A DNA stretch of 64,000 nucleotides from Candidatus Eiseniibacteriota bacterium (GTDB lineage Bacteria > Desulfobacterota > Binatia > DP-6). The position numbers and the translations under genes were made by a program. Each line of letters starts with the position of its first letter. The stretch's first letter is position 1. Below are positions 1-61,024 of the stretch, piece after piece. The notes beneath the pieces were generated by a model. The model searched no databases. It had not been told where the DNA came from and worked only from the letters and a program-made list of their open reading frames with translations. The DNA is taken from NCBI GenBank assembly GCA_035577985.1, contig DATJZY010000107.1, forward strand, positions 43,475 to 107,474, read 5' to 3'.

Positions 1-723
1 GGCGCGCCGGCGATCGCGACGTCGAGCGCCGCCATGGCGTGGGCGCTCGGCTACCCGGACGGGCAGCGCGCCCCGCGCGACGAGATCGTCGCCGCGATCG
101 CACGCATCTGTCGCGCCGTGCGCGCCCCGGTCAGCGCCGACGTCGAGCGCGGATTCGGCGGCTCGCCGGCGGACGTCGGCGAGACCGTTCGCGCGATCGT
201 TCGCGCCGGCGCGATCGGCGTGAACCTCGAGGACGGGAAGGCCGCGGACGGACGGACGCTGGTTGCGCCCGACGTCCTCGCCGACAGGATCCGCGCCGCC
301 CGGCAGGCCGCCGGCGCGGAGGGCGTCCCGCTCTTCGTGAACGCGCGCATCGATACCTACTTCGTCCCGGCTCCCGATCCGGCCGCGCGGTTCAAGGACA
401 CGCTCGCGCGTGCCGCCCGCTACGTCGACGCCGGAGCCGACGGCATCTTCGTTCCCGGTCTCGCGGATCTCGCCGAGATCGGCGAGCTCGTTCGCGCCGT
501 GCCGCGACCGGTGAACATCCTCGCCTGGCCCGGTGCCCCGACCGTCCCCGCCCTCGCCGCCGTCGGCGTCCGCCGCGTGAGCGTCGGCTGCAGCCCCATG
601 CAGGCCGTTCTCGGCCTCACCCGAAGGATCGGCCGCGAGCTCTTGAGCGCCGGCACGTACGACGCGATGGCGGGCGACTCCATCTCCGTCGCGGACGCGA
701 ACGCGCTCTTCGCCAGCCGCTGA
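1..723 (+). CDS. Isocitrate lyase/PEP mutase family protein (carboxyvinyl-carboxyphosphonate phosphorylmutase / methylisocitrate lyase-like), 5' partial
   Basis: The ORF track shows a 229 aa ORF starting at 34. The motifs VERGFGG, GVNLEDG and the overall layout match the ICL/PEPM TIM-barrel family. The first ~60 residues of the family are missing and the frame stays open to position 1, so the gene starts upstream of the window. Confidence 0.7.
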   Translation, partial: GAPAIATSSAAMAWALGYPDGQRAPRDEIVAAIARICRAVRAPVSADVERGFGGSPADVGETVRAIVRAGAIGVNLEDGKAADGRTLVAPDVLADRIRAARQAAGAEGVPLFVNARIDTYFVPAPDPAARFKDTLARAARYVDAGADGIFVPGLADLAEIGELVRAVPRPVNILAWPGAPTVPALAAVGVRRVSVGCSPMQAVLGLTRRIGRELLSAGTYDAMAGDSISVADANALFASR

Positions 724-888: not shown

Positions 889-1572
889 TCACCGCTTCGC
901 GACTGGCTCGCGCAGTACCGTCCGCACGTCGTTGAGGATGAGGTCGGGGTGCAGGAACCCCACGCTGTACACGTTCCGCACGCGGTGCTCGCCGTCGACC
1001 AGGAAGATCTTGAGCACGTGCCGGAAGAGTCCCGTCCACGAGCCGTCGGCGCGGCGGAGCTTGCCGACCGGCTGGCCGAAGTCGTCGAGCAGCGGTTGCA
1101 GGGCGGCGTCGTCCTGCGTCGTGACGAAGTACCAGTCGGCACCGGCCTCGTGCAGGCGGCGGGTCGCGGCCATGCGCGCGGGCGTGTCGCGTTCGGGGTC
1201 GAAGCTGACGCTCACGAGCGCGACCTTGCCGCGCAGCTCCGGGTCGTCGGCGACGGCACGGTCGATCCGGTGCAGGGCGGCGGTGCTGACCGGACACCCG
1301 GCGGCCTCGACGCACGTCGTGTAGACGAACGCGACGATCGCCACGCGATTTCCGGCCAGCGCGAAGAGCGTCGTCGCCGCGCCGTCGTCCGCGAGTACCG
1401 GGTGGTCCGAGACCGTCTTGATCGGCGGTAGCTCGTAGCTGCCGGGGGGCGGCGGCGCGTACTCCGGGACGAACGTGCCGACGCCGTAGGTGTACGCGTA
1501 GTCCGACGGATCGAGCGCCGCGGCCGCGGTCGCGACCGCGAGCGCCAGCGCCGCGATGCAGGCTCGGGTCAT
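889..1572 (-). CDS. SCO1/SenC family copper chaperone (thioredoxin-like)
   Basis: This is the C-terminal 227 aa of the spurious 1839 aa ORF 889..6408. It has an N-terminal signal/TM segment (MTRACIAALALAVATAAA), a CxxxC-like site (TTCVEAAGCP) and the SCO1 fold signature FVYTTC...VSFDPERDTP. The ATG sits at rc 1570-1572 and overlaps the TGA of the upstream SBP56 gene (ATGA). Confidence 0.8.
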   Translation of the reverse strand: MTRACIAALALAVATAAAALDPSDYAYTYGVGTFVPEYAPPPPGSYELPPIKTVSDHPVLADDGAATTLFALAGNRVAIVAFVYTTCVEAAGCPVSTAALHRIDRAVADDPELRGKVALVSVSFDPERDTPARMAATRRLHEAGADWYFVTTQDDAALQPLLDDFGQPVGKLRRADGSWTGLFRHVLKIFLVDGEHRVRNVYSVGFLHPDLILNDVRTVLREPVAKR

Positions 1573-2864
1573 CTGCGCGCGACGGCGCGCGCGGGCTCGG
1601 CCTCGCTGTAGATCTGGTTCTTGTAGAACTGGTCCTGCCCGAAGTGCATGTGGTGCGGGCGGCCGAGCCCCTCTTTCGCGAAGTCGATCCGGAACAGCGG
1701 GTGGAGCTTCTTGCCGTCGAAGCGGTACGCCGCCAGGAACTGCTCGTCGTCCTTGCCCTTCTTGTCCCACTTCGCCAGCAGTGACGACGTGAAGTACAGG
1801 CGCTCGCCGTCCCACGTCTCCGACACCATGTTCAGCTGCGAGCCGACGTGCTCCTCGGTCACGAGCTTCGGATGGTGCGGGTCGGAGACGTCGTAGATGC
1901 GGCACATGCCGTCCATCATCGAGTCGACGAACAGGAAGCGATCGTCTGCCGAGATGCTGATGTCGACCGGCAGCGGGATCTTCTTCGGGTCGCCGATGTC
2001 GGCGACGGCGCTCGCCTTGAACGTGCCGTCCGGGAGCTGCTCGATGAGCCAGATCTTCGACGTGAGGGCGGTCGACGTGAACGCGTAGTTGTGGCGCGGC
2101 TGCAGCGCCCAACGGATCTCGAGCGGCGCACCCGGGACCTCGAGCGTCTGGATGGGCTTGCGGGCGTGGAAGTCCCACACGACCATCGTGTTGCCGAAGC
2201 TCTTCATGGCCTCGGCGTCGCCCATCACCGCCGACAGGTCGCGCATGTAGTTCTTCTTGCCCGTGAACGACGACGTCAGCATGCGGTTGAGCCGCGGCTG
2301 CACGCGCACGTCGTAGCCGTAGCTCGCGTCGTCCGGCAGCCACATGGTGCGGACGAACTGGCCGTCGTTGTTGTACTCGACGAGCGCCGTGCGGCCGCCC
2401 TCGTCCTTCGAGTTCGAGAGCCCGCTGATCAGCATGCGGCCGGGCAGGGCGAAGAACGTGTGCGGCCCGACGACGCCGCCGCTGTCGGCGACGAAGGTGT
2501 CGATCGTCTTCACGATCTTCGGGTGCGCGGGATCGCTCGCGATGTCGAAGACCCAGATCGTGCTCGAGTCGAGCCCGCCGGCCCACAGGTAGCGGCGATC
2601 GTCGCTGAAGCCGGCGTGGTGCGCTTCGTGTCGGCCGCCGACCGACGCGGTCGAGACGACCTTGCCGTAGGTCGGCGTGCCGGGGCGCGCGCCGATCGTG
2701 ACGAGCTTGTCGGAGCCGTCGCCCACCCCCTCGATGCCGAGTGTCCAGGCGTAGACGTAGTCCTCCTGCCCGGTGATCTTCGGCATGTAGGGCGACATGC
2801 ACGTCTCGTCGGCGTGCGCGAGCGTGGCGGCGAGCACGATGAGGGTCGACGCGATTCGCATCAT
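1569..2864 (-). CDS. Selenium-binding protein 56 family protein (methanethiol oxidase MtoX-like), periplasmic
   Basis: The 431 aa ORF starts with a signal peptide (MMRIASTLIVLAATLAHADE). Similarity to the SBP56 family runs the full length, with beta-propeller-like repeats and many His/Asp residues. Confidence 0.85.
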   Translation of the reverse strand: MMRIASTLIVLAATLAHADETCMSPYMPKITGQEDYVYAWTLGIEGVGDGSDKLVTIGARPGTPTYGKVVSTASVGGRHEAHHAGFSDDRRYLWAGGLDSSTIWVFDIASDPAHPKIVKTIDTFVADSGGVVGPHTFFALPGRMLISGLSNSKDEGGRTALVEYNNDGQFVRTMWLPDDASYGYDVRVQPRLNRMLTSSFTGKKNYMRDLSAVMGDAEAMKSFGNTMVVWDFHARKPIQTLEVPGAPLEIRWALQPRHNYAFTSTALTSKIWLIEQLPDGTFKASAVADIGDPKKIPLPVDISISADDRFLFVDSMMDGMCRIYDVSDPHHPKLVTEEHVGSQLNMVSETWDGERLYFTSSLLAKWDKKGKDDEQFLAAYRFDGKKLHPLFRIDFAKEGLGRPHHMHFGQDQFYKNQIYSEAEPARAVARR

Positions 2865-2895
2865 GATCCCGACGCATATTAGGTTCGCGTCGCCG

Positions 2896-3798
2896 ATGAC
2901 AAGACCCGACGTCCGGGTGGGGACGGCGTCCTGGACGGAGAAGACGCTGCTCGAGAGCGGTGCCTTCTATCCGCCCACCGCGCGCACGGCCGAGCAGCGC
3001 CTGCGGTTCTACGCGCAGCGATTCGGCGTCGTCGAGGTGGACGCGACGTACTACGCGCTGCCGTCGGCGCGGAACGCCGCGGCATGGGTCGAACGCACGC
3101 CCGCCGGGTTCCTCTTCGGCGTGAAGGCGTTCGCCGCCATGACGGGACACCCGGTCGAGCCGACGCGTCTCGATCGCGATCTGCAGGCGGCGCTCCCGGC
3201 GGCGATGCGCCGAGCCCGCCAGCTCCACGCCCGCGCGCTGCCCGCCGACGTCGTCGCCGAGATCTGGCAGCGCTTCCGCGCGAACCTGGAGCCGCTGGTC
3301 GTCGCCGGCAAGCTCGCGTACGTCCTGCTGCAGATGCCGCCGTGGTTCCGACCCGGAGCCGAGAGCTGGCAGCAGCTCGACGACGCGGCGGCGCGCCTGC
3401 CGGGCTTGCCGTGTGCGGTCGAGTTCCGGGAAGCCGGCTGGCTCTCGGAGGGGCGCGCCGACGACACGCTCGAGCGCCTGCGCGAGCGGGGGCTCGCCTA
3501 CGTCTGCGTCGACGAGCCGCAGGGCACCGCGGCGAGCGTCCCGCCGGTGGCTGCGTCCACGTCCGACGCGCTCGCGGTCGTGCGGTTCCACGGCCGGCGG
3601 CGGGAGACGTGGACGCGCGCCGGCGCGCCCACGACCGAGCGCTTCCGCTACCTCTACCAGACCGGCGAGCTCGCCGAGTGGGTGCCCCGCATCCGGACCC
3701 TGGCGAAGGCGAGCCGGCGCGTGCTCGTCCTCATGAACAACTGCTACCGCGACTACGCGGTGCAGAACGCGCAGGACCTGGCGGCCCTGCTCGCCTAG
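2896..3798 (+). CDS. DUF72 (YecE-like) family protein
   Basis: The track ORF is 2797..3798. The conserved DUF72 N-terminus (RVGTASWTEKTLLESGAFYPPTARTAEQRLRFYAQRFGVVEVDATYYALP) begins at the ATG at 2896. The start is uncertain because that ATG lies only 31 bp from the divergent SBP56 start. Confidence 0.75.
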   Translation: MTRPDVRVGTASWTEKTLLESGAFYPPTARTAEQRLRFYAQRFGVVEVDATYYALPSARNAAAWVERTPAGFLFGVKAFAAMTGHPVEPTRLDRDLQAALPAAMRRARQLHARALPADVVAEIWQRFRANLEPLVVAGKLAYVLLQMPPWFRPGAESWQQLDDAAARLPGLPCAVEFREAGWLSEGRADDTLERLRERGLAYVCVDEPQGTAASVPPVAASTSDALAVVRFHGRRRETWTRAGAPTTERFRYLYQTGELAEWVPRIRTLAKASRRVLVLMNNCYRDYAVQNAQDLAALLA

Positions 3799-4598
3799 GG
3801 CTCGACGCCGAAGAGGCGCGCGAAGTTCTCGCTCATGCGCGTTGCGACCTCGGCCTCGGGAACGCCCCACAGCTCCGCCGCGTAGGCCGCGGTGCCCGCG
3901 ATCGTGGCGGGCTCGTTGCGCTCCTCGCGGTTGGGCGACAGATATGGGCAGTCGGTCTCGAGCAGCAGCCGCTCGCGCGGCAACGTCTGCAGCATGCGCG
4001 TGAAGCTCTCCGAACGCCGCGCGTTGGCGGGGATCGAGAAGTAGTGGCCGCGCTCTGCGATCTGTCGCGCCAGGTTCACCTTGCCGCCGAAGCAGTGCCA
4101 GTTGACCCGCGTCGCGCCCAGCTCCTCCAACACCTCGAGCGCGCGGCGCTCGCGCTTGCGCGTGTGGATGATGATCGGCTTTCCGGCATCGAGGGCGATG
4201 CGGACGAGGGCGCGGAAGGCTGCCTCCTGCTTCTCCCAGAGCGACTCCGGAACCCAGTAGCCGTCGAGTCCGATCTCGCCGACCGCGATCGCTTCGCCCG
4301 CGTGCTCGCGCACCCAGGCGATCCCCTCGTCGGCGGCGACGGGCTCCTCGTCGCGCGGGTACTCGACGCCCATCGTCACCATGTCCGCGAGCACCGTGTC
4401 GACCGGATAGAAGCCGAAGGCGGGCTTCACGACCGGGTGGCGCGCGGCGAGCGTGCGCGTCGCCTCGTTGTCGCGCGGGTTGAGGCCGTTCGACACGATC
4501 GTCGTCAGCCCCGCGGCGGTCGCGCGCGCGACGATCGCGTCGATGTCCGGCAGCAGCTTGCGGTGCGTGAGATGCGCGTGGACGTCGGCGAGGCCCAT
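3795..4598 (-). CDS. TatD family metal-dependent hydrolase
   Basis: The 267 aa ORF carries the TatD motifs DVHAHL, HCFGG and LLETDCPYL. Confidence 0.9.
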   Translation of the reverse strand: MGLADVHAHLTHRKLLPDIDAIVARATAAGLTTIVSNGLNPRDNEATRTLAARHPVVKPAFGFYPVDTVLADMVTMGVEYPRDEEPVAADEGIAWVREHAGEAIAVGEIGLDGYWVPESLWEKQEAAFRALVRIALDAGKPIIIHTRKRERRALEVLEELGATRVNWHCFGGKVNLARQIAERGHYFSIPANARRSESFTRMLQTLPRERLLLETDCPYLSPNREERNEPATIAGTAAYAAELWGVPEAEVATRMSENFARLFGVEP

Positions 4599-4610
4599 CG
4601 CGAGACTCTC

Positions 4611-6947
4611 TCACCCGCTCGCGGCGACGGACGGCATCGGAGAGACGACGGGCGTCGATTCGTGGCCGAAGATGAAGCGCGGCCGGGTGCGCAGCACGAG
4701 CACGGGCATGAGCGAGAGCGCCGCGAAGCACGAGAGCAGCATCGCGAGCGGCATGAGGGTGCCGAAGAGGCGCATGCCGAGGTACGGCGAGATGGCTTCG
4801 ACCGAGAACCCGGCGCCGATCGACGCGGCGACGAAGAGCACGGCGCGGCCGGACGTCCTGAGTGCGATGCCGAACGCTTCGGCGTCGGTCGCCGAGCGCT
4901 TCCGCTCCTCGCGGAGCCGATACAGGAAGTAGATGGCGTAGTCGGCGCCGATGCCGGCCGCCATGGAGATGACGGACGACGACCCCATGTCGAACCGCAC
5001 GCCCGTCCAGCCGAGGATGCCGAAGAGCTCGATCACGGTCACGACGATCGGACAGACGACGTACAGCCCACCCGTCGCCGAGCGCATGATGGTCGAAGAG
5101 ATGGCGTAGATCGCGAGCAGCACGACGACCATGTTCACGAGCTTCCCGTAGGTCGTGTGCTCGTTCACGGCGAGGATCGTCGGTCCCGCGCCGCCGGCGA
5201 CCAGCACCTTCACGCCGTCGGGCGGCGGATGGTCGCGGAGCCACGCCTCGGTGTGACGGACGAGCGGACCCACCAGCGCCGAGTCGTCGTCGGTGAGGTA
5301 CGCCATGACGATCGCCTTCGTCTGCGCGCGATCCACGAACCGCTCGAAGGCCGGCGAGTCGCCGAGGAACATGAGCTGCGAGACCAGCTCCTGGTCGTCG
5401 GGAACGCGATACGGGTTCGGCGCATCCGCCGCGAACGTCTTGTGGAGCGTCTTCACGAGATCGGCGAGCGACGCCGTGCGCAGCACGAGCGGGTCCTTCT
5501 CGAGCTCGGCCTGCATGGCCGCCATGTGCTGCAGGAAGGGAACCGTCTTCGCGCTGCCCTCGGCTCCCTCGTAGAGGATCGTCATCGTGACCGTGCCGGG
5601 GAAGTGCTTCTGGATCTCGTCCAGATGCACGCGCGGGAGGCTCCCCTTCGGCATGTACTCGCGCGTCGGGCCGAACGTCCGGATGCGCGCGATGCCGACC
5701 AGCGAGAGCACGAGCGCGATCGCCGTGCCGATCAGGACGGGGCGCCCGTTGCCGCGCAGGATCGCGCGCTCGAGCGTCGCGAGGACCGCGGTCGTGACGC
5801 CGCCTTCGGGCGGAACGTGCTTCGGGGCGGGCAGCACCGCCCGCAACGCCGGGATCAGCGTGAGCTCGAGGAAGACGGCACTGCCGATGCCGTAGGCGCA
5901 CGAGAGCCCGAAGTTCGCGATGGACCGGACGCCGAAGAGCGCGAGCGACGCGAAGCCGAGCGCGGCGGTGGCGCCGGCCGCGACCATGACCGGACCGATC
6001 TTCACGGTCGACTCGATGACGGCGGCGCGGTTGTCCCGCGTCCGCACGACCTCTTCCACGTACCGCTTCAACATCTGGGCCGAATGCGCGGCCGCGACCG
6101 CGATGAGGAGGATCGGCACCGCCGCGTTCCAGCCGTCGATGGGAATGCCCGTATGTCCCTGCAGGCCGAGCCCCCACACGGTGGAGAGCGTCGCCGTGAG
6201 CATGGGGATGAACATGCCCTGGAAGCTCCGGAACGAGACGAGCAGCATCACCGCGATCACGAGGAACGTGACGGGGATCCGGCGCATGAGCATGGCAGAC
6301 TGGTCGAGGTCGGTCAGGGCGAAGGTGGGCTCGCCGGCGATCCAGACGTCGACGCCGCGGTCGTGATACGGCTCGGCCAGTGCGAGGACGGCATTCGCGA
6401 CCTCCCACGACTGTTGCTTGCCCTCGAAGAAGTCGAGGACGACGATCGCGGCCTTCTGGTCGGGCGTGACGAGCATGCCCCGGAGCTGCGGATCACTCTC
6501 GACCTTCGCCCGCAGACGCGCGATCTCCTCGGGCGTCTTCGGGGCGTCGCGCATGAGGTAGTCGACCTTGATCGAGCCGCCGGACTCCTCGACGTAGCGG
6601 ACCGCCGGGGCGGCGAGGCTCACCACGTTCTGCGCCATGATGTCGGGGAGGCGGAGCGCCGCCAGCGTGAAGTCGCGCACGATCTCGAGCACCGGCGTCT
6701 GCCAGACCTCGCCCTCGCGCGGCACGATCGCGACGATGAGGGTGCGCCGGCCGCCGAACTCGGCCCGGATCTCCTTGTCGATCTGCACGAAGGGATGATT
6801 CGCGGGGAGACTCGCCTCGACGCTGAACTCGCTGCGGAGCTTGGTCATGCCGCTGCCGACCAGCACGGTCAGGGCGGCGACGACGGCGAGCACGAGCCAG
6901 CGGAATCGGACCAGGAGGCGGACGTAGCGTTCGAAGGCGGTGGCCAT
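4611..6947 (-). CDS. MMPL/RND-superfamily membrane exporter
   Basis: The track ORF is 4611..6983. The call has two 6-TM bundles, each followed by a periplasmic loop, which is the MMPL (HpnN-like) architecture. I placed the start at MATAFERYV (rc ATG 6945-6947). Confidence 0.8.
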   Translation of the reverse strand: MATAFERYVRLLVRFRWLVLAVVAALTVLVGSGMTKLRSEFSVEASLPANHPFVQIDKEIRAEFGGRRTLIVAIVPREGEVWQTPVLEIVRDFTLAALRLPDIMAQNVVSLAAPAVRYVEESGGSIKVDYLMRDAPKTPEEIARLRAKVESDPQLRGMLVTPDQKAAIVVLDFFEGKQQSWEVANAVLALAEPYHDRGVDVWIAGEPTFALTDLDQSAMLMRRIPVTFLVIAVMLLVSFRSFQGMFIPMLTATLSTVWGLGLQGHTGIPIDGWNAAVPILLIAVAAAHSAQMLKRYVEEVVRTRDNRAAVIESTVKIGPVMVAAGATAALGFASLALFGVRSIANFGLSCAYGIGSAVFLELTLIPALRAVLPAPKHVPPEGGVTTAVLATLERAILRGNGRPVLIGTAIALVLSLVGIARIRTFGPTREYMPKGSLPRVHLDEIQKHFPGTVTMTILYEGAEGSAKTVPFLQHMAAMQAELEKDPLVLRTASLADLVKTLHKTFAADAPNPYRVPDDQELVSQLMFLGDSPAFERFVDRAQTKAIVMAYLTDDDSALVGPLVRHTEAWLRDHPPPDGVKVLVAGGAGPTILAVNEHTTYGKLVNMVVVLLAIYAISSTIMRSATGGLYVVCPIVVTVIELFGILGWTGVRFDMGSSSVISMAAGIGADYAIYFLYRLREERKRSATDAEAFGIALRTSGRAVLFVAASIGAGFSVEAISPYLGMRLFGTLMPLAMLLSCFAALSLMPVLVLRTRPRFIFGHESTPVVSPMPSVAASG

Positions 6948-14581: not shown

Positions 14582-16234
14582 ATGCTGTCCCTGGCGGGAG
14601 TGAGCAAGCGCTACGGGTCACAGATCGTCTTCGACAACGTGTCGTGGGCGGTCCCGGACGGCGCACGCGTGGGCCTGACGGGCCCGAACGGCGCCGGCAA
14701 ATCGACGCTGCTGAAGATCCTCGCCGGCGCCCTCGAGCCCGACGACGGCCAGGTCGCGCTGCCGAAGGGGACGCGCGTCGGCTACCTGCCGCAGCACATC
14801 CTCGGCATCTCGGGCGTCTCGGTCCTCGACCACGCGCTGGCGGCGTTCGCCGAGCTGCACGAGCTGGAGGCGCGGCGCGCCGACCTCGAGCACCAGCTCG
14901 CCACCGTCGATCCGCAGGCGGAAGACTACGAAGCGATCCTCGCGCGCTACACGGCCATCTGCGAGGAGTGGGAGCACCGCGGTCGCTACGACATCGAGTC
15001 CGAGACCGAGACCGTGCTGCGCGGCCTCGGCTTCGGCGACGCCGACATGGACCGCGACTGCGGGGAGCTCTCGGGCGGGTGGCAGATGCGGGTCGCGCTC
15101 GCGCAGATCCTGCTCCAGCGCCCCGACGTGCTCCTGCTCGACGAGCCGACCAACTACCTCGATCTCGAGGCGCGCAACTGGCTCGAGGAGTTCCTCGCGG
15201 CCTATCCCGGCACCGTCATCCTGGTCGCGCACGATCGCTACTTCCTCGACGTCGCCGTCGACCGCATCGCCGAGGTACTGCACGGGCGCATCACCGACTA
15301 CGGCATGAACTACAGCCGCTACCTCGAGGAGCGCGAGACCCGCCTCGAGCTCGCGCGCGCGGCCTACGAGAACCAGAAGGCCGAGATCGAGCGCATCGAG
15401 GCGTTCATCTCGCGCTTCCGCTACCAGGCGTCGAAGGCGGCGCTCGTCCAGAGCCGCATCAAGCAGCTCGAGAAGATCGAGCGCCTCCCGCCGCCCGACG
15501 GGCACGAGCGCGAGCTGCGCCTGCGGCTGCCCGAGGCGCAGCGCAGCGGCCGCGTCGTGCTCGAGCTCCGGGGCGCGAGCAAGCGCTACGACGGGAAGAT
15601 CGTCTACGACCACGCCGACGTGACGATCGAGCGCGGCCAGCGCGTCGCGATCGTCGGACCCAACGGCGCCGGCAAGACGACACTCCTCAAGATGCTCGCC
15701 GCGGTCCTGGCGCTCGACGGCGGCGAGCGCAAGGTGGGACACAACGTCCGCCTCGGCTACTTCGCGCAGGACCACGCGGAGATGCTGTCGACGACGCGGT
15801 CGGTCTACGACGAGATGATGAGCATCGCGACCGCCGAGACGGCGCCGCACGTGCGCGGGCTCCTCGGCGCCTTCCTGTTTTCGGGCGACGCGGTCGAGAA
15901 GCGTGTCGGCGTCCTGTCGGGCGGCGAGAAGAGCCGCCTCGCCCTCGCCAAGCTCCTGCTCGAGCCCGTGAACTGCTTCCTGCTCGACGAGCCGACGAAC
16001 CACCTGGACCTCACGGCGAAGGAGGTCCTGCTGGGTGCGCTCGAGGCGTACACCGGCACGGTCGTGATCGTGGCGCACGACCGCTACATCCTGGACAAGC
16101 TGCCGACGCACGTGATCGAGGTCGGCACCGGCAAGGCGATCCTCTACCACGGCAACTACGAGGACTACCTGCACGCCAAGGCACGCGCCGCGCTCCAGCC
16201 TCCGGCCCCCAAGGGCCGCGCCGCCAGAACCTGA
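14582..16234 (+). CDS. ABC-F family ATPase (EttA/Uup-like translation factor, two ABC domains)
   Basis: There are two Walker A motifs (GPNGAGKST, GPNGAGKTT), two LSGG signatures (LSGGWQ, LSGGEK) and a linker between the two ABC domains. No transmembrane domain is present. The start is the ATG at 14582 (MLSLAGVSKRY). Confidence 0.9.
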   Translation: MLSLAGVSKRYGSQIVFDNVSWAVPDGARVGLTGPNGAGKSTLLKILAGALEPDDGQVALPKGTRVGYLPQHILGISGVSVLDHALAAFAELHELEARRADLEHQLATVDPQAEDYEAILARYTAICEEWEHRGRYDIESETETVLRGLGFGDADMDRDCGELSGGWQMRVALAQILLQRPDVLLLDEPTNYLDLEARNWLEEFLAAYPGTVILVAHDRYFLDVAVDRIAEVLHGRITDYGMNYSRYLEERETRLELARAAYENQKAEIERIEAFISRFRYQASKAALVQSRIKQLEKIERLPPPDGHERELRLRLPEAQRSGRVVLELRGASKRYDGKIVYDHADVTIERGQRVAIVGPNGAGKTTLLKMLAAVLALDGGERKVGHNVRLGYFAQDHAEMLSTTRSVYDEMMSIATAETAPHVRGLLGAFLFSGDAVEKRVGVLSGGEKSRLALAKLLLEPVNCFLLDEPTNHLDLTAKEVLLGALEAYTGTVVIVAHDRYILDKLPTHVIEVGTGKAILYHGNYEDYLHAKARAALQPPAPKGRAART

Positions 16235-16235
16235 G

Positions 16236-16510
16236 GTCTTCTCCGACCCAAGACTGCGTCTTGGGTCGGGAGAACCGAGAGTGTGGCGTCAGAGGCACGC
16301 ACAACCTGCATGCCGCGGCCGGCGAAGCCGGCGCGGCAACGCTAGCACGCACGAGAGAATTGGTGCGGACAGGACGTGTTGCGTCGTCGTGCTTCAACGC
16401 TGCGCGCGTACCTCGCCCTGCCGCGCCGGCTTCGCCGGCCGCGGCATACCGGTCGCGCGTGCCACCAACGCTGCACTCTCGCCCCCGACCCAAGACCTAG
16501 TCTTGGGTCG
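16236..16510. repeat. ~275-bp nested imperfect palindrome (MITE/REP-like) bounded by two hairpins with identical 12-bp stems
   Basis: Hairpin 1 (~16243-16269) is ccgacccaagac-tgc-gtcttgggtcgg and hairpin 2 (~16484-16510) is ccgacccaagac-cta-gtcttgggtcgg. An inner inverted repeat pairs catgccgcggccggcgaagccggcgcggca (~16308-16337) with tgccgcgccggcttcgccggccgcggcat (~16421-16449). The flanks gagagtg...ggcacgc...atgccgcgg are also mirrored. The element sits between the convergent ABC-F gene and the small basic-protein gene. No U-tract follows either hairpin. Confidence 0.6.
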
Positions 16511-16517
16511 GCGTTCT

Positions 16518-16871
16518 CTAGCGCCGTCCGCGGCCGACGCCGCGCGGCGTCTGCTGGCCGCCCGGCGGCGGCACGGGCTTCACCGAGACCCGGTGGTTCG
16601 GCATCGGGCGGAAGAGCATGGTGTCGGCGACCCGCTTCAGCTTGAGCTTCAGCTCGTGCTTGGAGACCGCGTCGCCCGGCGCCGCGAGCACGGTCTGCAG
16701 CGACAGCTCGGTGTGCGAATGCTTCTGGCCGTGCGTCAGCGTCACGTGGAGGCGCTCCTGGCCGGGGATGTCGCGCACCTCGACGTCGAGCCGCCGATCG
16801 ATCGACCGAGCGAGGTCGAGGAGGATCTTTCGGGCTTCCTGGCGGGCTTCGGCGAGATCGTGCGATTCCAT
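16518..16871 (-). CDS. Small basic hypothetical protein (117 aa) with RGG/Pro-rich C-terminal tail
   Basis: The track ORF is 16518..16952. The call starts at the internal ATG at rc 16869-16871 (MESHDLAEARQEARKILLDLARS...), which has a GGAGG SD 8 nt upstream. A near-consensus promoter lies upstream, with TTGACA, a 17-nt spacer and TCTAAC. The C-terminus is KPVPPPGGQQTPRGVGRGRR. I rejected HPF/RaiA as too weak a match. Confidence 0.55.
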   Translation of the reverse strand: MESHDLAEARQEARKILLDLARSIDRRLDVEVRDIPGQERLHVTLTHGQKHSHTELSLQTVLAAPGDAVSKHELKLKLKRVADTMLFRPMPNHRVSVKPVPPPGGQQTPRGVGRGRR

Positions 16872-16892
16872 GGGGGCAGGCCTCCACCGGCG

Positions 16893-16921
16893 GTTAGACC
16901 GGAGGGTTCCCGGGCTGTCAA
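16893..16921 (-). promoter_or_regulatory. Sigma-70-type promoter candidate for the small basic protein gene
   Basis: On the minus strand there is TTGACA (rc of + ~16916-16921), a 17-nt spacer and TCTAAC (rc of + ~16893-16898). The SD GGAGG and the ATG follow about 20 nt downstream. Confidence 0.5.
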
Positions 16922-16977
16922 CGAGGGGCGCGTCGGCCGTGGCGCGTTTCACCGGGAAGCGACCCGCGCCTCTTCGC

Positions 16978-18198
16978 TCAGGCGAGAACGCCTTTGCTCT
17001 CGAGTCCGGCGTATTCGTCGGCGGACATGCCGAGGAGATCGCGCAGGACGCGGGTGGTGTGCTCGCCGAGCTTGGGGGCGGGGATGCGGATGTCGGCGGG
17101 GGTGTCGGGGAAGACGATGGCGTTCATCTCGGCGGGGTGGCGGCCGAGGACGGGATGGTCGACCCAGCGGAACTGGCGGCGATGCGCGAGCTGCGGGTCG
17201 TCGTGGACGTCGCCCAGGTCCTGCACCGGCGCGGCGTCGATACCGGCCTGCTGCAGCCGTTCGGCGAGCGTGCCGGCGTCGTGCGTGCGCGTCCAGCCGT
17301 CGACGTGACACTCGACCTCGCCGATGCGCGTGAGCCGGCCGGCGAGCGTCGCGAGCGACGTGTCGGTCGCCCACGCGGGCTTGCCCATCGCGTCGACGAG
17401 GCGCCGCCAGTCGGCGTCGTCGTGGACGGCGATCGCGATCCATCGCTCGCGGCCGTCGGCGGCGTCCTTGCAGCGGAAGACGCCGTGCGGCACCTCGTGA
17501 CGCGAGCGGTTGCCGACGCGCCCGAGCGCCTCGCCGTTCGCCGCGAACGTCACGAGGGCTTCGGAGAGGCAGATGATGCCGCCCTCGACCTGAGCCAGAT
17601 CGATGTGCTGGCCCTCGCCCGTGCGTGCGCGATGCAGGAGCGCCGACGCGAGCAGCAGGGCCGCGAAGCGCGGCGAGAGCGAGTCCGTGATCGTGCCGTA
17701 CGGGCCCAGGGGCTCGCGATCGGGCCAGCCCGTCAGGTGGTTGAAGCCCGAGAGCGCCGAGCCCTGGCCGCCGAAGCCGGGGTAGAAGCGATGCGGCCCG
17801 GTCTGGCCGTTGAGGCACGTGCTGATCATGACGAGGTCGGGACGCTCGCGGACCAGGGTCGCGTAGTCGAGGCCCCATTTCTTCATCGCGCCCGGCGCGA
17901 AGTTCTCGGCGACCGCGTCCGCCCGGAGAGCGAGGCGCTTCGCGACCGCGACGCCTTCGGGCATGGACAGGTTCAGCGCCACCGAGAGCTTGTTCACGTT
18001 GAGGACGGCGAAATGCTCGGCGGCGTCGAGCCCGCCCGGCGTGTTCGGCGTCAGCTTCAACGTCCGCAGGAAGTCGGGCCGTGCCTTCGACTCGATGCGG
18101 ATCACGGTCGCGCCGCAGTCGGCGAAGTAGCGCGTGGCGACGGGCCCCGCCGCGCCCGCGCCCATCTCGAGGATCGTCGTGCCGCCGAAGATGTCCAT
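16978..18198 (-). CDS. CoA-transferase family III (CaiB/BaiF) protein
   Basis: The track ORF is 16978..18720. The call starts at MDIFGGTTILEMGAGAAGPVATRYFADCGATVIRIE (rc ATG 18196-18198). The rest of the sequence is CaiB/BaiF-like. Confidence 0.85.
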   Translation of the reverse strand: MDIFGGTTILEMGAGAAGPVATRYFADCGATVIRIESKARPDFLRTLKLTPNTPGGLDAAEHFAVLNVNKLSVALNLSMPEGVAVAKRLALRADAVAENFAPGAMKKWGLDYATLVRERPDLVMISTCLNGQTGPHRFYPGFGGQGSALSGFNHLTGWPDREPLGPYGTITDSLSPRFAALLLASALLHRARTGEGQHIDLAQVEGGIICLSEALVTFAANGEALGRVGNRSRHEVPHGVFRCKDAADGRERWIAIAVHDDADWRRLVDAMGKPAWATDTSLATLAGRLTRIGEVECHVDGWTRTHDAGTLAERLQQAGIDAAPVQDLGDVHDDPQLAHRRQFRWVDHPVLGRHPAEMNAIVFPDTPADIRIPAPKLGEHTTRVLRDLLGMSADEYAGLESKGVLA

Positions 18199-51559: not shown

Positions 51560-51911
51560 GGAACGCGTCACCGTGTACCACAACCCGGTCTGTGGGAAGT
51601 CGCGCGGCGCGCTCGATATCCTGCGCGAGCGCGGCGTCGAGCCCGAGGTGGTCGAGTATCTGCGCACGCCGCCCGATCGTGCGACGCTCGAGCGGTTCCT
51701 CGGTCTGCTCGCCGGGCCGCCGGCCGATCTCGTGCGCAAGGACAAGCGCTTCAAGGAGCTCGGGCTCTCTGCGGAGCGCTACGTCACGCGCGACCAGGTG
51801 GTGGCGCTCCTCCTCGAGCATCCCGAGCTCATGGAGCGGCCGGTCGTGATCCGCGGCAGCCGCGCGGTCATCGCGCGCCCGTCCGAGCGCGTGCTCGAGC
51901 TCCTCGACTGA
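51558..51911 (+). CDS. ArsC/Spx-family thioredoxin-fold protein (YffB-like)
   Basis: This is the in-frame tail of track ORF 50910..51911. It begins MERVTVYHNPVCGKSRGALDIL, the classic ArsC-family N-terminus with the catalytic Cys. The protein is 117 aa. Confidence 0.85.
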   Translation: MERVTVYHNPVCGKSRGALDILRERGVEPEVVEYLRTPPDRATLERFLGLLAGPPADLVRKDKRFKELGLSAERYVTRDQVVALLLEHPELMERPVVIRGSRAVIARPSERVLELLD

Positions 51912-51914
51912 CGG

Positions 51915-52160
51915 TCAGCCGTTGCGTGCGCGGGCCGCGAGGATCGCCTGCACGAGCTCTTCGGGAACGTCGTCGCCGACGGCGTCGTGCTCTTCGGTGC
52001 ACACGACCTTGCCGAGACGGATGGTCGCCGCGTAGCCGCGCAGGTACCTCACGCAGTCGGGGCACCGGGCGAGGTGCGCGTCGAACGCGCCGCGCTCGGC
52101 GAGCCCGAGGTCGCCGTCGAGGTAGTCGGCGAGGAAGTCGGTGAACTCGCGGCAGGTCAT
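51915..52160 (-). CDS. zf-HC2 (RsrA/ChrR-like) putative anti-sigma factor, orphan
   Basis: This is the C-terminal 81 aa of the spurious ORF 51915..54101 (MTCREFTDFLADYLDGDLGLAERGAFDAHLARCPDCVRYL). The H/C..C pattern (HLARCPDC) of zf-HC2 anti-sigma N-domains is present. The ATG overlaps the TGA of the upstream GH63-like gene (ATGA). No ECF sigma gene is nearby. Confidence 0.6.
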   Translation of the reverse strand: MTCREFTDFLADYLDGDLGLAERGAFDAHLARCPDCVRYLRGYAATIRLGKVVCTEEHDAVGDDVPEELVQAILAARARNG

Positions 52161-59743: not shown

Positions 59744-61024
59744 CTACGGCCGTCGAGTGGCCGCCGCCGAGCCCAGACACGCGAAGTCCTTCGCGAAGCA
59801 GAGATCGAGCGACCAGTCGAGCGCGACCCGGACCTTCTTCTCGAGCCGCGGCAGCTTGCCGAGGTAGATCGTTCGCCAGAGCCACCACGCGACGAAGCCG
59901 GAGAAGTTGACGCCGAGGACGTTCGCGACGCCCGTGCGCCGCCCGATGGCGGCGAGCTGCCCGAGCGTCGAGAAGCGGAAGCGCTTCTGCGGTCGTCCCG
60001 CCAGCGTGGCGATCGCGTTGCGCGCCGCGACGGCGGCTTCGCGGATCGCGTGCTGCGCGGTCGGCGGGTGGTAGCCGCCGGTGCGCGGGTTCGGCACGAG
60101 CGCGCAATCGCCGACCGCCCACACGTCGTTCCGGCCCCGTACCTGCAGGTGCTCGTCCACCGCGATGCGGCCGCGCTCCTTGGGCACGTCGAGCGCGGAC
60201 AGGATCGGATGCGGCGCCGTCCCGGCCGTCCACACGAGGGTCGTCGTCGGGATGCGGCTGCCGTCCGTCAGCTCGACCGCCCCATCGCGATAGGCCGTGA
60301 CCTTCTGTCGGGTCACGATCTCGACGCCGCGGGCGGCGAGCCTTCGCTGCGCGTAGGCGCCGAGCCTCGAGTCGAGCTCGGGGAGGATCACCGGGTCGGG
60401 TGCGACCAGCACCGTGCGCACGAGATCGGGACGGAGGTTCGGGAAGAACGGGAGCGACTCGTGCACGAAGTCGTGAAGACCACCCAGCGTCTCGACACCC
60501 GCGAACCCGCCGCCCGCGACGACGAAGGTGAGGAGCGGCTGCCGCTCGCCCGCGGCGCACTCGCCGTTCGCCTCTTCGAGCTGCGCGATGACCCGGCTGC
60601 GCAGCGCCAGTGCGTCGTCGAGCGACTTCATCGTGATGGCGTGCTCGGCGACGCCCGGGAGGCCGAAGAAGTTGGTGGTCGACCCGAGCGCCAGGATGAG
60701 GCGATCGTACGGCAGCTCGTGGCGATGTCCGTCGGATCCGTGCGAGACCTCCACGGACCGTCCGGCGAGATCGATCGCCTCCACCCGCCCGACGAAGGTG
60801 CGGACGCGCCGGAGGAGCTTGCGCAGCGGGTTCACGATGGTCGACGCCTCGAGCTCGCCCGCCGCTACCTCGTGTAGCATCGGCGTGAACAGGAAGAAGT
60901 TCTCGGCGGCGACCAGGGTGACCTCGACGTCGCGCCGGCGGCCGACGAGCCTCTCGAGCTCGAGCGCGGCATAGACCCCGCCGAAGCCCCCGCCCAGGAT
61001 CAGTATGCGATACGTGCCGTCCAT
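59744..61024 (-). CDS. Type II NADH dehydrogenase-like (NDH-2) FAD/NAD(P)-binding oxidoreductase
   Basis: The track ORF is 59744..61528. The call starts at [18 protein letters not shown] (rc ATG 61022-61024). It has two dinucleotide-binding motifs (GGGFGG and [11 protein letters not shown]) and a C-terminal amphipathic or TM segment. Confidence 0.8.

Follow-up and report, generated by a model that had tools for sequence, protein, structure and literature searches.

A mirror-symmetric palindrome of about 280 bases occupies the gap between two convergent genes, an ABC-F gene and a gene for a 117-aa protein, in the window (the whole 64,000-nucleotide stretch of DNA analyzed here). We conclude that this element is likely to be an aged MITE/REPIN-like repeat, mobile but non-autonomous, probably one that targets TA dinucleotides as IS630/mariner-like elements do. 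Membership in the general class of non-autonomous mobile repeats is quite likely. TA-targeted insertion by an enzyme of the IS630/Tc1-mariner type, which we infer, is the most likely mechanism; a little under half of the total probability falls to it, and it is put forward tentatively. The repeat family is previously undescribed and is widespread in soil Binatia and Myxococcota; targeted literature searches for a repeat of this kind in Myxococcota or Binatia returned nothing relevant, and there is no Rfam family for it.

The flanking genes and the parts of the element are as follows:

14582..16234, + strand: left flank, ABC-F type ATPase, 550 aa (translation; Pfam ABC_tran/ABC_tran_Xtn on the identical contig L145)
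16235..16357, + strand: left terminal module, type C, consisting of H1, arm, H2, and tail (nhmmer E = 1.6e-27 with the profile of 148 family modules; row 1 of alignment A1)
16243..16269: H1-left hairpin, perfect 12-bp stem, loop TGC (DNA fold −13.4 kcal/mol, z = −7.5)
16294..16302, + strand: arm copy of the short motif G[C/G/T]ACGC[G/A]CG, here GGCACGCAC (sequence; motif counts across the family)
16311..16338: H2-left hairpin, TGCCGCG-G-GCCGGC-GAA-GCCGGC-GCGGCA, 12 bp and one bulged G (DNA fold −16.7 kcal/mol)
16358..16398: variable centre (spacer) between the two modules, outside module-profile coverage
16399..16519, − strand: right terminal module, type C, the left module inverted (nhmmer E = 1.2e-26; row 2 of A1)
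16419..16446: H2-right hairpin, exact reverse complement of H2-left (DNA fold −16.3 kcal/mol)
16485..16511: H1-right hairpin, 12-bp stem as in H1-left, loop CTA (sequence; DNA fold)
16512..16521: right outer terminus cgttcTCTAG, in which the CTAG at 16518-16521 contains the stop codon of the 117-aa gene
16518..16872, − strand: right flank, conserved hypothetical protein, 117 aa (translation; exact match gene-called on three contigs)

The ABC-F gene ends with a TGA at 16232-16234 on the + strand, 8 nt ahead of H1, and the 117-aa gene ends with a stop at 16518-16520 on the − strand (reverse complement TAG). The palindromic element of ~285 nt sits between these two stop codons and has no coding capacity; it thus fills the convergent gap, as the initial annotation had described. 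The 117-aa protein has 95 homologues, of which the closest named one, at 92% identity, comes from a Candidatus Binatia MAG, which makes Binatia the most likely origin of the window.

H1 has the form CCGACCCAAGAC-NNN-GTCTTGGGTCGG. That it occurs twice, with an identical 12-bp stem and different loops (TGC and CTA), had been noticed from the sequence at the outset; the second copy lies at 16485-16511, one position away from where it had been placed. The exact H1 12-mer is found in the 64-kb window only as the four half-sites of these two hairpins, and looser matches to it are at chance level (8 vs. 7.6 expected). The inner inverted repeat, for which arms of ~29 nt had been claimed, is real and larger: a perfect 28-nt core (16311-16338 and 16419-16446) lies within 70-nt arms (16276-16345 and 16412-16481) that are 83% complementary. 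A second copy of the arm motif GGCACGCAC is present in direct orientation past H2, at 16344-16353. A search of the 64-kb window with the module profile recovered the two modules of this one element only, i.e., the element is single-copy there. The inner portion of the profile (model positions 56-120) also matched weakly at 59832-59891 on the − strand (nhmmer E = 0.08), probably by chance.

The segment 16230-16520 folds as a single hairpin of ~280 nt, with z = −13.6 for the + strand and −16.8 for the − strand, and none of 200 shuffled sequences was equally stable. No T/U tract follows either hairpin on either strand, the sequence past both H1 copies is G-rich, and no terminator-like site was found in 15800-17000, in agreement with the earlier view that these hairpins are not classic intrinsic terminators. 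The promoter/terminator scan gave no promoter-like site at the element.

A second, unrelated palindrome is present at 724-888 of the window, where it fills the convergent gap between an ORF at 34..723 (+) and an ORF at 889..6408 (−). It has perfect 23-nt arms, GAGGTCGGCGGGGGCCAGGGCGC, at 743-765 and 845-867, and 65-nt arms at 78%; its DNA fold has an energy of −72.6 kcal/mol (z = −7.2). It was absent from all collected loci of the family to which the element at 16235-16519 belongs.

The suggestion of a MITE-like or REP/BIME-like repeat that is also present elsewhere is borne out: the same architecture is found at many unrelated metagenome and MAG loci, and at an orthologous site it is either present or absent. 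Both the hairpin and the whole unit are dispersed. A scan for the exact H1, in which each GTDB species was represented by a single genome, found it at 25 loci in 6 MAGs, whose labels are Binatia, Polyangia, Myxococcales, and delta proteobacterium. MAGs with the full-length type have one or two exact-H1 loci each, a number that counts against the mobile-repeat reading, as does the single copy in the 64-kb window. Repeats are under-represented in MAG assemblies. Metagenomes were scanned with a composite pattern (the 3' half of H1, 35-65 nt, and CGCGGCCRGC), which was found in at least 119 metagenome contigs and in several Binatia and Myxococcota MAGs. The exact H1 had no matches among viral contigs, and blastn with the whole element gave no match in the plasmid collection. 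Copies lie at many unrelated loci and in both orientations; multiple copies are present on contigs such as L088, L115, L067, and L048, and several contigs hold two or three within 6-15 kb.

H1 is found in three contexts: in a ~75-nt element flanked by CTAG, alone with an extended stem (CTAGGAGC-H1-GCTCCTAG, locus L015), and in a composite of ~270 nt like that of the window. The ~75-nt element, present at 18 loci in MAG FCS_M_Myxococcota_02 (L002-L025), combines H1 with a second, unrelated hairpin and has the sequence CTAG-CAGG-H1-CTTGCGCCGCAAA-CGGAGCCC-TTCG-GGGCTCCG-TCAG-CTAG. It has only H1 in common with the window element, and its ends form an imperfect inverted repeat of ~15 nt.

A module profile made from 148 aligned family modules (alignment A1) was applied to 0.82 Mb of collected loci, where it identified 192 modules, corresponding to 69 full elements, 35 true solos, and 19 modules at contig ends. 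In all 69 pairs, the modules are inverted with H1 pointing outward, i.e., terminal inverted repeats are present. The family architecture is therefore one of two inverted ~120-nt modules around a variable centre, each module consisting, from the outside, of an outer flank, H1 (12-bp stem, 3-nt loop), an arm of ~45 nt, H2, and a short tail. H2 of the family reads TGCCGCG-G-GCCRGC-loop-GCYGGC-GCGGCA (12 bp, one bulge), and each module has two copies of the motif G[C/G/T]ACGCGCG, both pointing the same way, on either side of H2. Full elements are 211-461 nt long (median 296), below the limit of ~600 bp for MITEs. Their centres measure 1-220 nt (median 57) and vary in sequence between copies, with partial conservation within subfamilies.

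Two side observations concern individual copies. Tandem duplications of 5-13 nt adjoin H1 or lie within H2 at several loci (L036 619-653, L016 6385-6400, L027, L033), which suggests frequent replication slippage at the hairpins. At L123 (6146-6215), an ORF contains a solo H1 in its 3' end, and the upstream frame reads through the hairpin; a full element follows 16 nt past this solo H1, after a TGA.

The history of the locus was traced in relatives carrying homologues of the 117-aa protein. Three contigs from other samples with an exact match to the protein (L145-L147) have a gap identical to that of the window. At 97% identity (L148/L149), the element is in the same place and strongly decayed: the left H1 is without its 5' half, H2 is disrupted, and the centre is unrelated. 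At 88% identity (L155), the same convergent pair is separated by a 30-nt gap, the element is absent, and the 117-aa gene has the same TAG stop. At 86% identity (L156/L157), the gap contains an unrelated sequence with an A-tract/hairpin/T-tract terminator, and more distant relatives with lower identity have other neighbours and no H1. Comparison of the two filled relatives gives 81% identity and 68 gap positions for the element, against 93% identity for the flanking genes. Insertion polymorphism is thus present, with the window and L148/L149 filled, L155 empty, and L156 holding an unrelated terminator; in addition, locus L011 is filled at a site where the window is empty. The element is a lineage-specific insertion that is, on the whole, under little or no purifying selection.

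The second polymorphic site is at 51900-51915 of the window, where two convergent genes are only 3 nt apart (TGA cgg TCA) and the element is absent. In L011 (6730-7015), from a Binatia MAG, a 272-nt family element abuts the TAG of the orthologue of the left window gene, which ends at ~51912; the orthologue ends one codon earlier than the window gene. At the locus of the window element, the orthologous gap of L156 (1827-2114; also in L157) is taken up by a bidirectional intrinsic terminator of the classical type (ctgaaaaactgcgcaaagcgcggtttttcgg) and, in the gene call, an ORF of 70 aa. In L148/L149 (10530-10886), the final ~30 nt of the ABC-F gene, with the stop codon, are missing, and its frame enters the decayed element for ~100 nt, which the gene call turns into a C-terminal extension of ABC-F encoded by the element.

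Across the family, element ends are tightly associated with stop codons. A stop codon lies no more than 15 nt outside H1 at 149 of 174 ends (control 14%), and 118 of those 149 stops terminate open frames that have 80 codons or more, or that have at least 30 codons and run off the contig end (control 4%). The commonest spacer between stop and H1 is 4 nt, and the ends are mostly in convergent gaps. TAG is the most frequent of these stops (69), followed by TAA (31) and TGA (18); a crude background count of long open frames in this DNA puts TGA first. A TA dinucleotide is found in the 8 nt just outside H1 at 128 of 173 ends (74%) vs. 6.5% of random 8-mers, in the contexts CTAG (51), GTAG (22), ATAG (15), ATAA (12), and CTAA (11). 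The distance from TA to H1 ranges from 0 to 8 nt, and this variation counts against insertion at TA, as does the left end of the window copy, which has no TA within 14 nt. The right terminus of the window copy, TAGAGAACG-H1, is similar to the TAGAAC(G)-H1 of L011 and L087.

The flanks are mirror-related, xTA-R ... Y-TAy, and the left and right tetranucleotides are not identical. A 4-bp YTAR duplication of the IS5 type is disfavoured, since it would require tetranucleotides that are identical rather than mirror-related. Judging by the flanks, the pattern would fit a 2-bp TA duplication, the first base of the element being a purine, or else TAR termini carried by the element itself. A target-derived TA is favoured because the TAG of the right module in the window is the ancestral stop of the 117-aa gene, which is also present at the empty site of L155. 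As TA and CTAG are both palindromic and no filled/empty pair aligned cleanly at both junctions, the 2-bp duplication of TA is putative. A junction search for empty alleles among the collected loci returned only allelic filled copies. IS630 is described as preferring TA within CTAG (Tenzen and Ohtsubo 1991, as cited in PMC2170065).

We propose that the mobile unit would be ~270-300 bp long, with a poorly conserved centre flanked by two terminal modules of ~120 nt in inverted orientation, each with a TA-purine terminus outermost. A transposase acting in trans would recognize the terminal modules and insert the unit at TA, preferably within CTAG, duplicating the TA in the manner of IS630/Tc1-mariner elements. 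In genomes with ~70% G+C, TA sites that tolerate insertion would mostly be stop codons, and with an element that begins with G or A, the junction would re-create TAG or TAA at both ends. Such re-created stops would explain why flanking genes end 0-8 nt from H1. TA-targeted insertion would likewise account for the TA at both ends, for the preference for CTAG, for stops being TAG or TAA more often than TGA, and for an empty site that already has the ancestral TAG. Transcripts reading through from either neighbour would carry H1 and H2 as stable 3' stem-loops, and any influence of these on the transcripts would be secondary. The search for an autonomous copy, i.e., inverted termini 0.6-4 kb apart around a transposase gene or coding region, gave only neighbouring separate elements in ~0.8 Mb of loci.

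The hairpins within the modules are strongly maintained. In the cells of A1, H1 is 99.4% paired and H2 98.9% paired. Compensatory changes are seen in 6 of the 11 pairs of H1; in H2, pair 112-122 changes from GC to AU in 43 sequences, and pair 104-130 from CG to UA in 28. Cells in which both sides have changed number 109, vs. 30 ± 4 in shuffles, and the H1+H2 structure scores far above every slid control. Since an intact H1 and/or H2 was demanded by the patterns used for collecting loci, conservation in the 3' half of H1 and the 5' half of H2 is partly due to ascertainment. The search pattern covered neither column of pair 104-130; of the two columns of 112-122, one could be R in the pattern and the other was not part of it. 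The covariation of these two pairs is, therefore, not a collection artefact. G.U and A.C mismatches are in balance, i.e., no preferred RNA strand is seen. An additional helix closing H2 (CGCGCG/CGCGCG), which appears in the single-sequence fold, was rejected, since it is only 76% paired and one of its pairs is broken in 71 sequences.

Pairing between the two halves of the element behaves differently. The fold and covariation check, proposed together with the first description of the element, showed compensatory change in the local hairpins H1 and H2 and none between the element halves, and the RNAalifold consensus contains H1 and H2 only. In the columns of arm and tail, identity is 58.9% between partner modules and 58.5% between random pairs, and a module has its own partner among its three most similar modules in just 1 of 40 cases. 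Since partner modules are no more alike than random ones, nothing preserves the pairing between halves, and long-range pairing as a selected structure is rejected. The long ~280-nt hairpin is a by-product; only the local H1 and H2 are conserved.

The modules are nevertheless not combined at random. When they are typed by H2, the pairings are A+B (26), C+C (16, the window copy being of this kind), D+D (3), and A+C (2), and A+A or B+B are never found. The non-random pairing of subtypes, the partly conserved centres, and the clustering of lengths around 296 nt indicate that the full element propagates as one piece. A model of independent 3'-UTR modules, one per gene, was rejected as the main explanation by the strict A+B pairing and the conserved centres. 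In many solo modules, the inner end reads ...GGTTCCTAG, which, when reversed, resembles CTAGGAAACCGAC..GGGTC, i.e., H1 with the centre deleted. Solo modules and bare H1 hairpins are deletion derivatives.

Compensatory hairpins within the termini are unexpected for a DDE transposase that binds double strands. They fit better with single-strand recognition of the HUH/RAYT type, with selection at the RNA level, or with template-switch correction of quasi-palindromes. The last of these processes could mimic compensatory change. The first corresponds to the foremost alternative to TA-targeted insertion, a REPIN-like element moved by a HUH/tyrosine (RAYT-like) transposase that acts on single strands, which we consider rather improbable. 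H1, and perhaps H2, would then be a REP-type hairpin read as folded ssDNA, the full element would be an inverted REP doublet, and the TAG on the 5' side of H1 would be an element-borne motif like the GTAG of REPs instead of a target duplication. The conserved NTAG at a fixed distance (modal spacer 4 nt) agrees with such a motif; on the other hand, the same position is also taken by TAA and other NTAN variants, and the window TAG is an ancestral stop that also stands at the empty site of L155. The inverted doublets with a less conserved spacer and the singlet remnants match the published description of REPINs (PMC3337134), and a-palindrome-a^c forms exist, as in L015 (CTAGGAGC-H1-GCTCCTAG) and L022; the units, however, are ~120 nt long with two different hairpins, far larger than known REPs. 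The strong compensatory upkeep of the H1 and H2 stems is expected from an enzyme that recognizes hairpins, the balanced G.U and A.C mismatches reveal no RNA-strand bias, and H1 is common to three otherwise unrelated element types. The enzyme itself did not appear in ~1 Mb of element-bearing loci, where E. coli RayT had no tblastn hit with E ≤ 5; this is a weak test, as RAYTs are single-copy per genome.

Two further possibilities touch on the same data. It is unlikely that H1 is the recognition hairpin of an undescribed HUH/RAYT-like system with large two-hairpin REP units, or that the family is a stop-codon-seeking MITE that restores TAG/TAA at its two junctions and thereby rewrites the 3' ends of genes, as at L148. 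An IS200/IS605-derived PATE, which would have subterminal hairpins that act strand-specifically and no terminal inverted repeats, was considered and rejected: inverted repeats are formed by the 70-nt arms and by the modules as a whole, and there was no Rfam match of the HEARO/omega-RNA type.

The element might also be a cassette selected by the host for its action at 3' ends, where it would provide both mRNAs with bidirectional terminators devoid of U-tracts or with 3' stem-loops that protect from exonucleases, and would owe its presence to this function rather than to mobility. This is very unlikely. The position of H1, 0-8 nt past the stops at most ends and in convergent gaps, would suit such a function, as would stable stems (−13 to −17 kcal/mol) kept by compensatory changes. 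E. coli REPs in the same position stabilize the upstream mRNA. The cassette is contradicted by the lack of a T-tract on either strand and by the orthologous gap of the relatives, which is empty (30 nt) or holds a canonical terminator, so that the lineage uses ordinary terminators and needs no element there. It also sits poorly with the L148 copy, in which half of H1 and most of H2 are gone and into which the ABC-F frame continues, and with the A+B pairing and TA termini, which point to propagation as a unit. Finally, a single structured ncRNA gene forming one ~280-nt hairpin, such as an antisense RNA or a processed dsRNA precursor, which the initial annotation had also raised, can be dismissed almost entirely despite the extreme fold stability on both strands and sub-threshold Rfam matches to long-hairpin miRNA precursor models, since the best Rfam match in 15500-17500 (E ≤ 1) reaches 73 bits vs. 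a gathering score of 168 and is generic to long hairpins, no Rfam family applies, the halves do not co-vary and the consensus fold gives H1 and H2 alone, no promoter-like site is present, copies lie at many unrelated loci in both orientations, and decay is quick and rich in indels compared with the flanking genes.

For annotation, the result means that long palindromes in convergent gaps of such G+C-rich soil genomes are to be read as repeat insertions and not called as ncRNA genes, as terminators, or as spurious ORFs; ORFs that are falsely extended or created across these elements are produced by some gene callers (L148, L156). As mobile DNA, the family is widespread in soil, comes from poorly studied phyla, and has unusually long two-hairpin ends. 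Its very tight association with stop codons fits TA targeting in high-G+C genomes, and its copies could serve to mark strains. It is an ordinary kind of element and opens no new category.

TA termini and long stem-loops are typical of bacterial MITEs, Correia, ERIC, and RUP among them; RUP has been linked to IS630-Spn1 (PMC2229807), the IS630-family transposase linked to it targeting TA (PMC2229807; PMC2170065). Like Correia/NEMIS of Neisseria, RUP of S. pneumoniae, and ERIC/IRU, the family described here is non-coding and non-autonomous, has terminal inverted repeats and TA termini, forms one long stem-loop, and is mostly intergenic, with dispersed copies and both filled and empty sites. It differs from Correia, RUP, and ERIC, which measure 100-200 bp, in its length of ~270-300 bp and in its hosts, uncultured Binatia and Myxococcota. 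Each of its termini is a ~120-nt module with two internally palindromic hairpins kept by compensatory substitutions, its TA duplication is putative, and no partner insertion sequence with matching ends was found.

With REPINs and the REP/BIME elements that accompany RAYTs in Pseudomonas and Enterobacteria, the family shares inverted doublets of a palindromic unit around a less conserved spacer, degenerate singlets, a-palindrome-a^c remnants, an extragenic location near stop codons, and compensatory hairpins (PMC3337134). Whereas REPs are imperfect palindromes of ~20-40 nt, its unit has ~120 nt and two distinct hairpins, of which H1 is a perfect palindrome; unlike in REPINs, no RAYT was found among ~1 Mb of loci, and the TA-purine termini coincide with ancestral stops. 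IS630/Tc1-mariner elements and their MITEs, including plant Stowaway, resemble it in insertion at TA (within CTAG for IS630) and in hairpin formation, the comparison concerning the target signature alone, and the two copies of the short motif in each terminus are loosely reminiscent of the IR-DR ends of IS630/Tc1-mariner elements. No transposase and no matching IS ends turned up for the family, and its 2-bp duplication is putative. With Rho-independent terminators, it has in common a G+C-rich stem-loop directly after a stop in a convergent gap; it departs from them in the absence of a U/T tract on either strand and in the presence of an identical stem at many unrelated loci. The window family is thus different from classical bacterial MITEs and REPINs in its size and its long two-hairpin termini, and it works like them.
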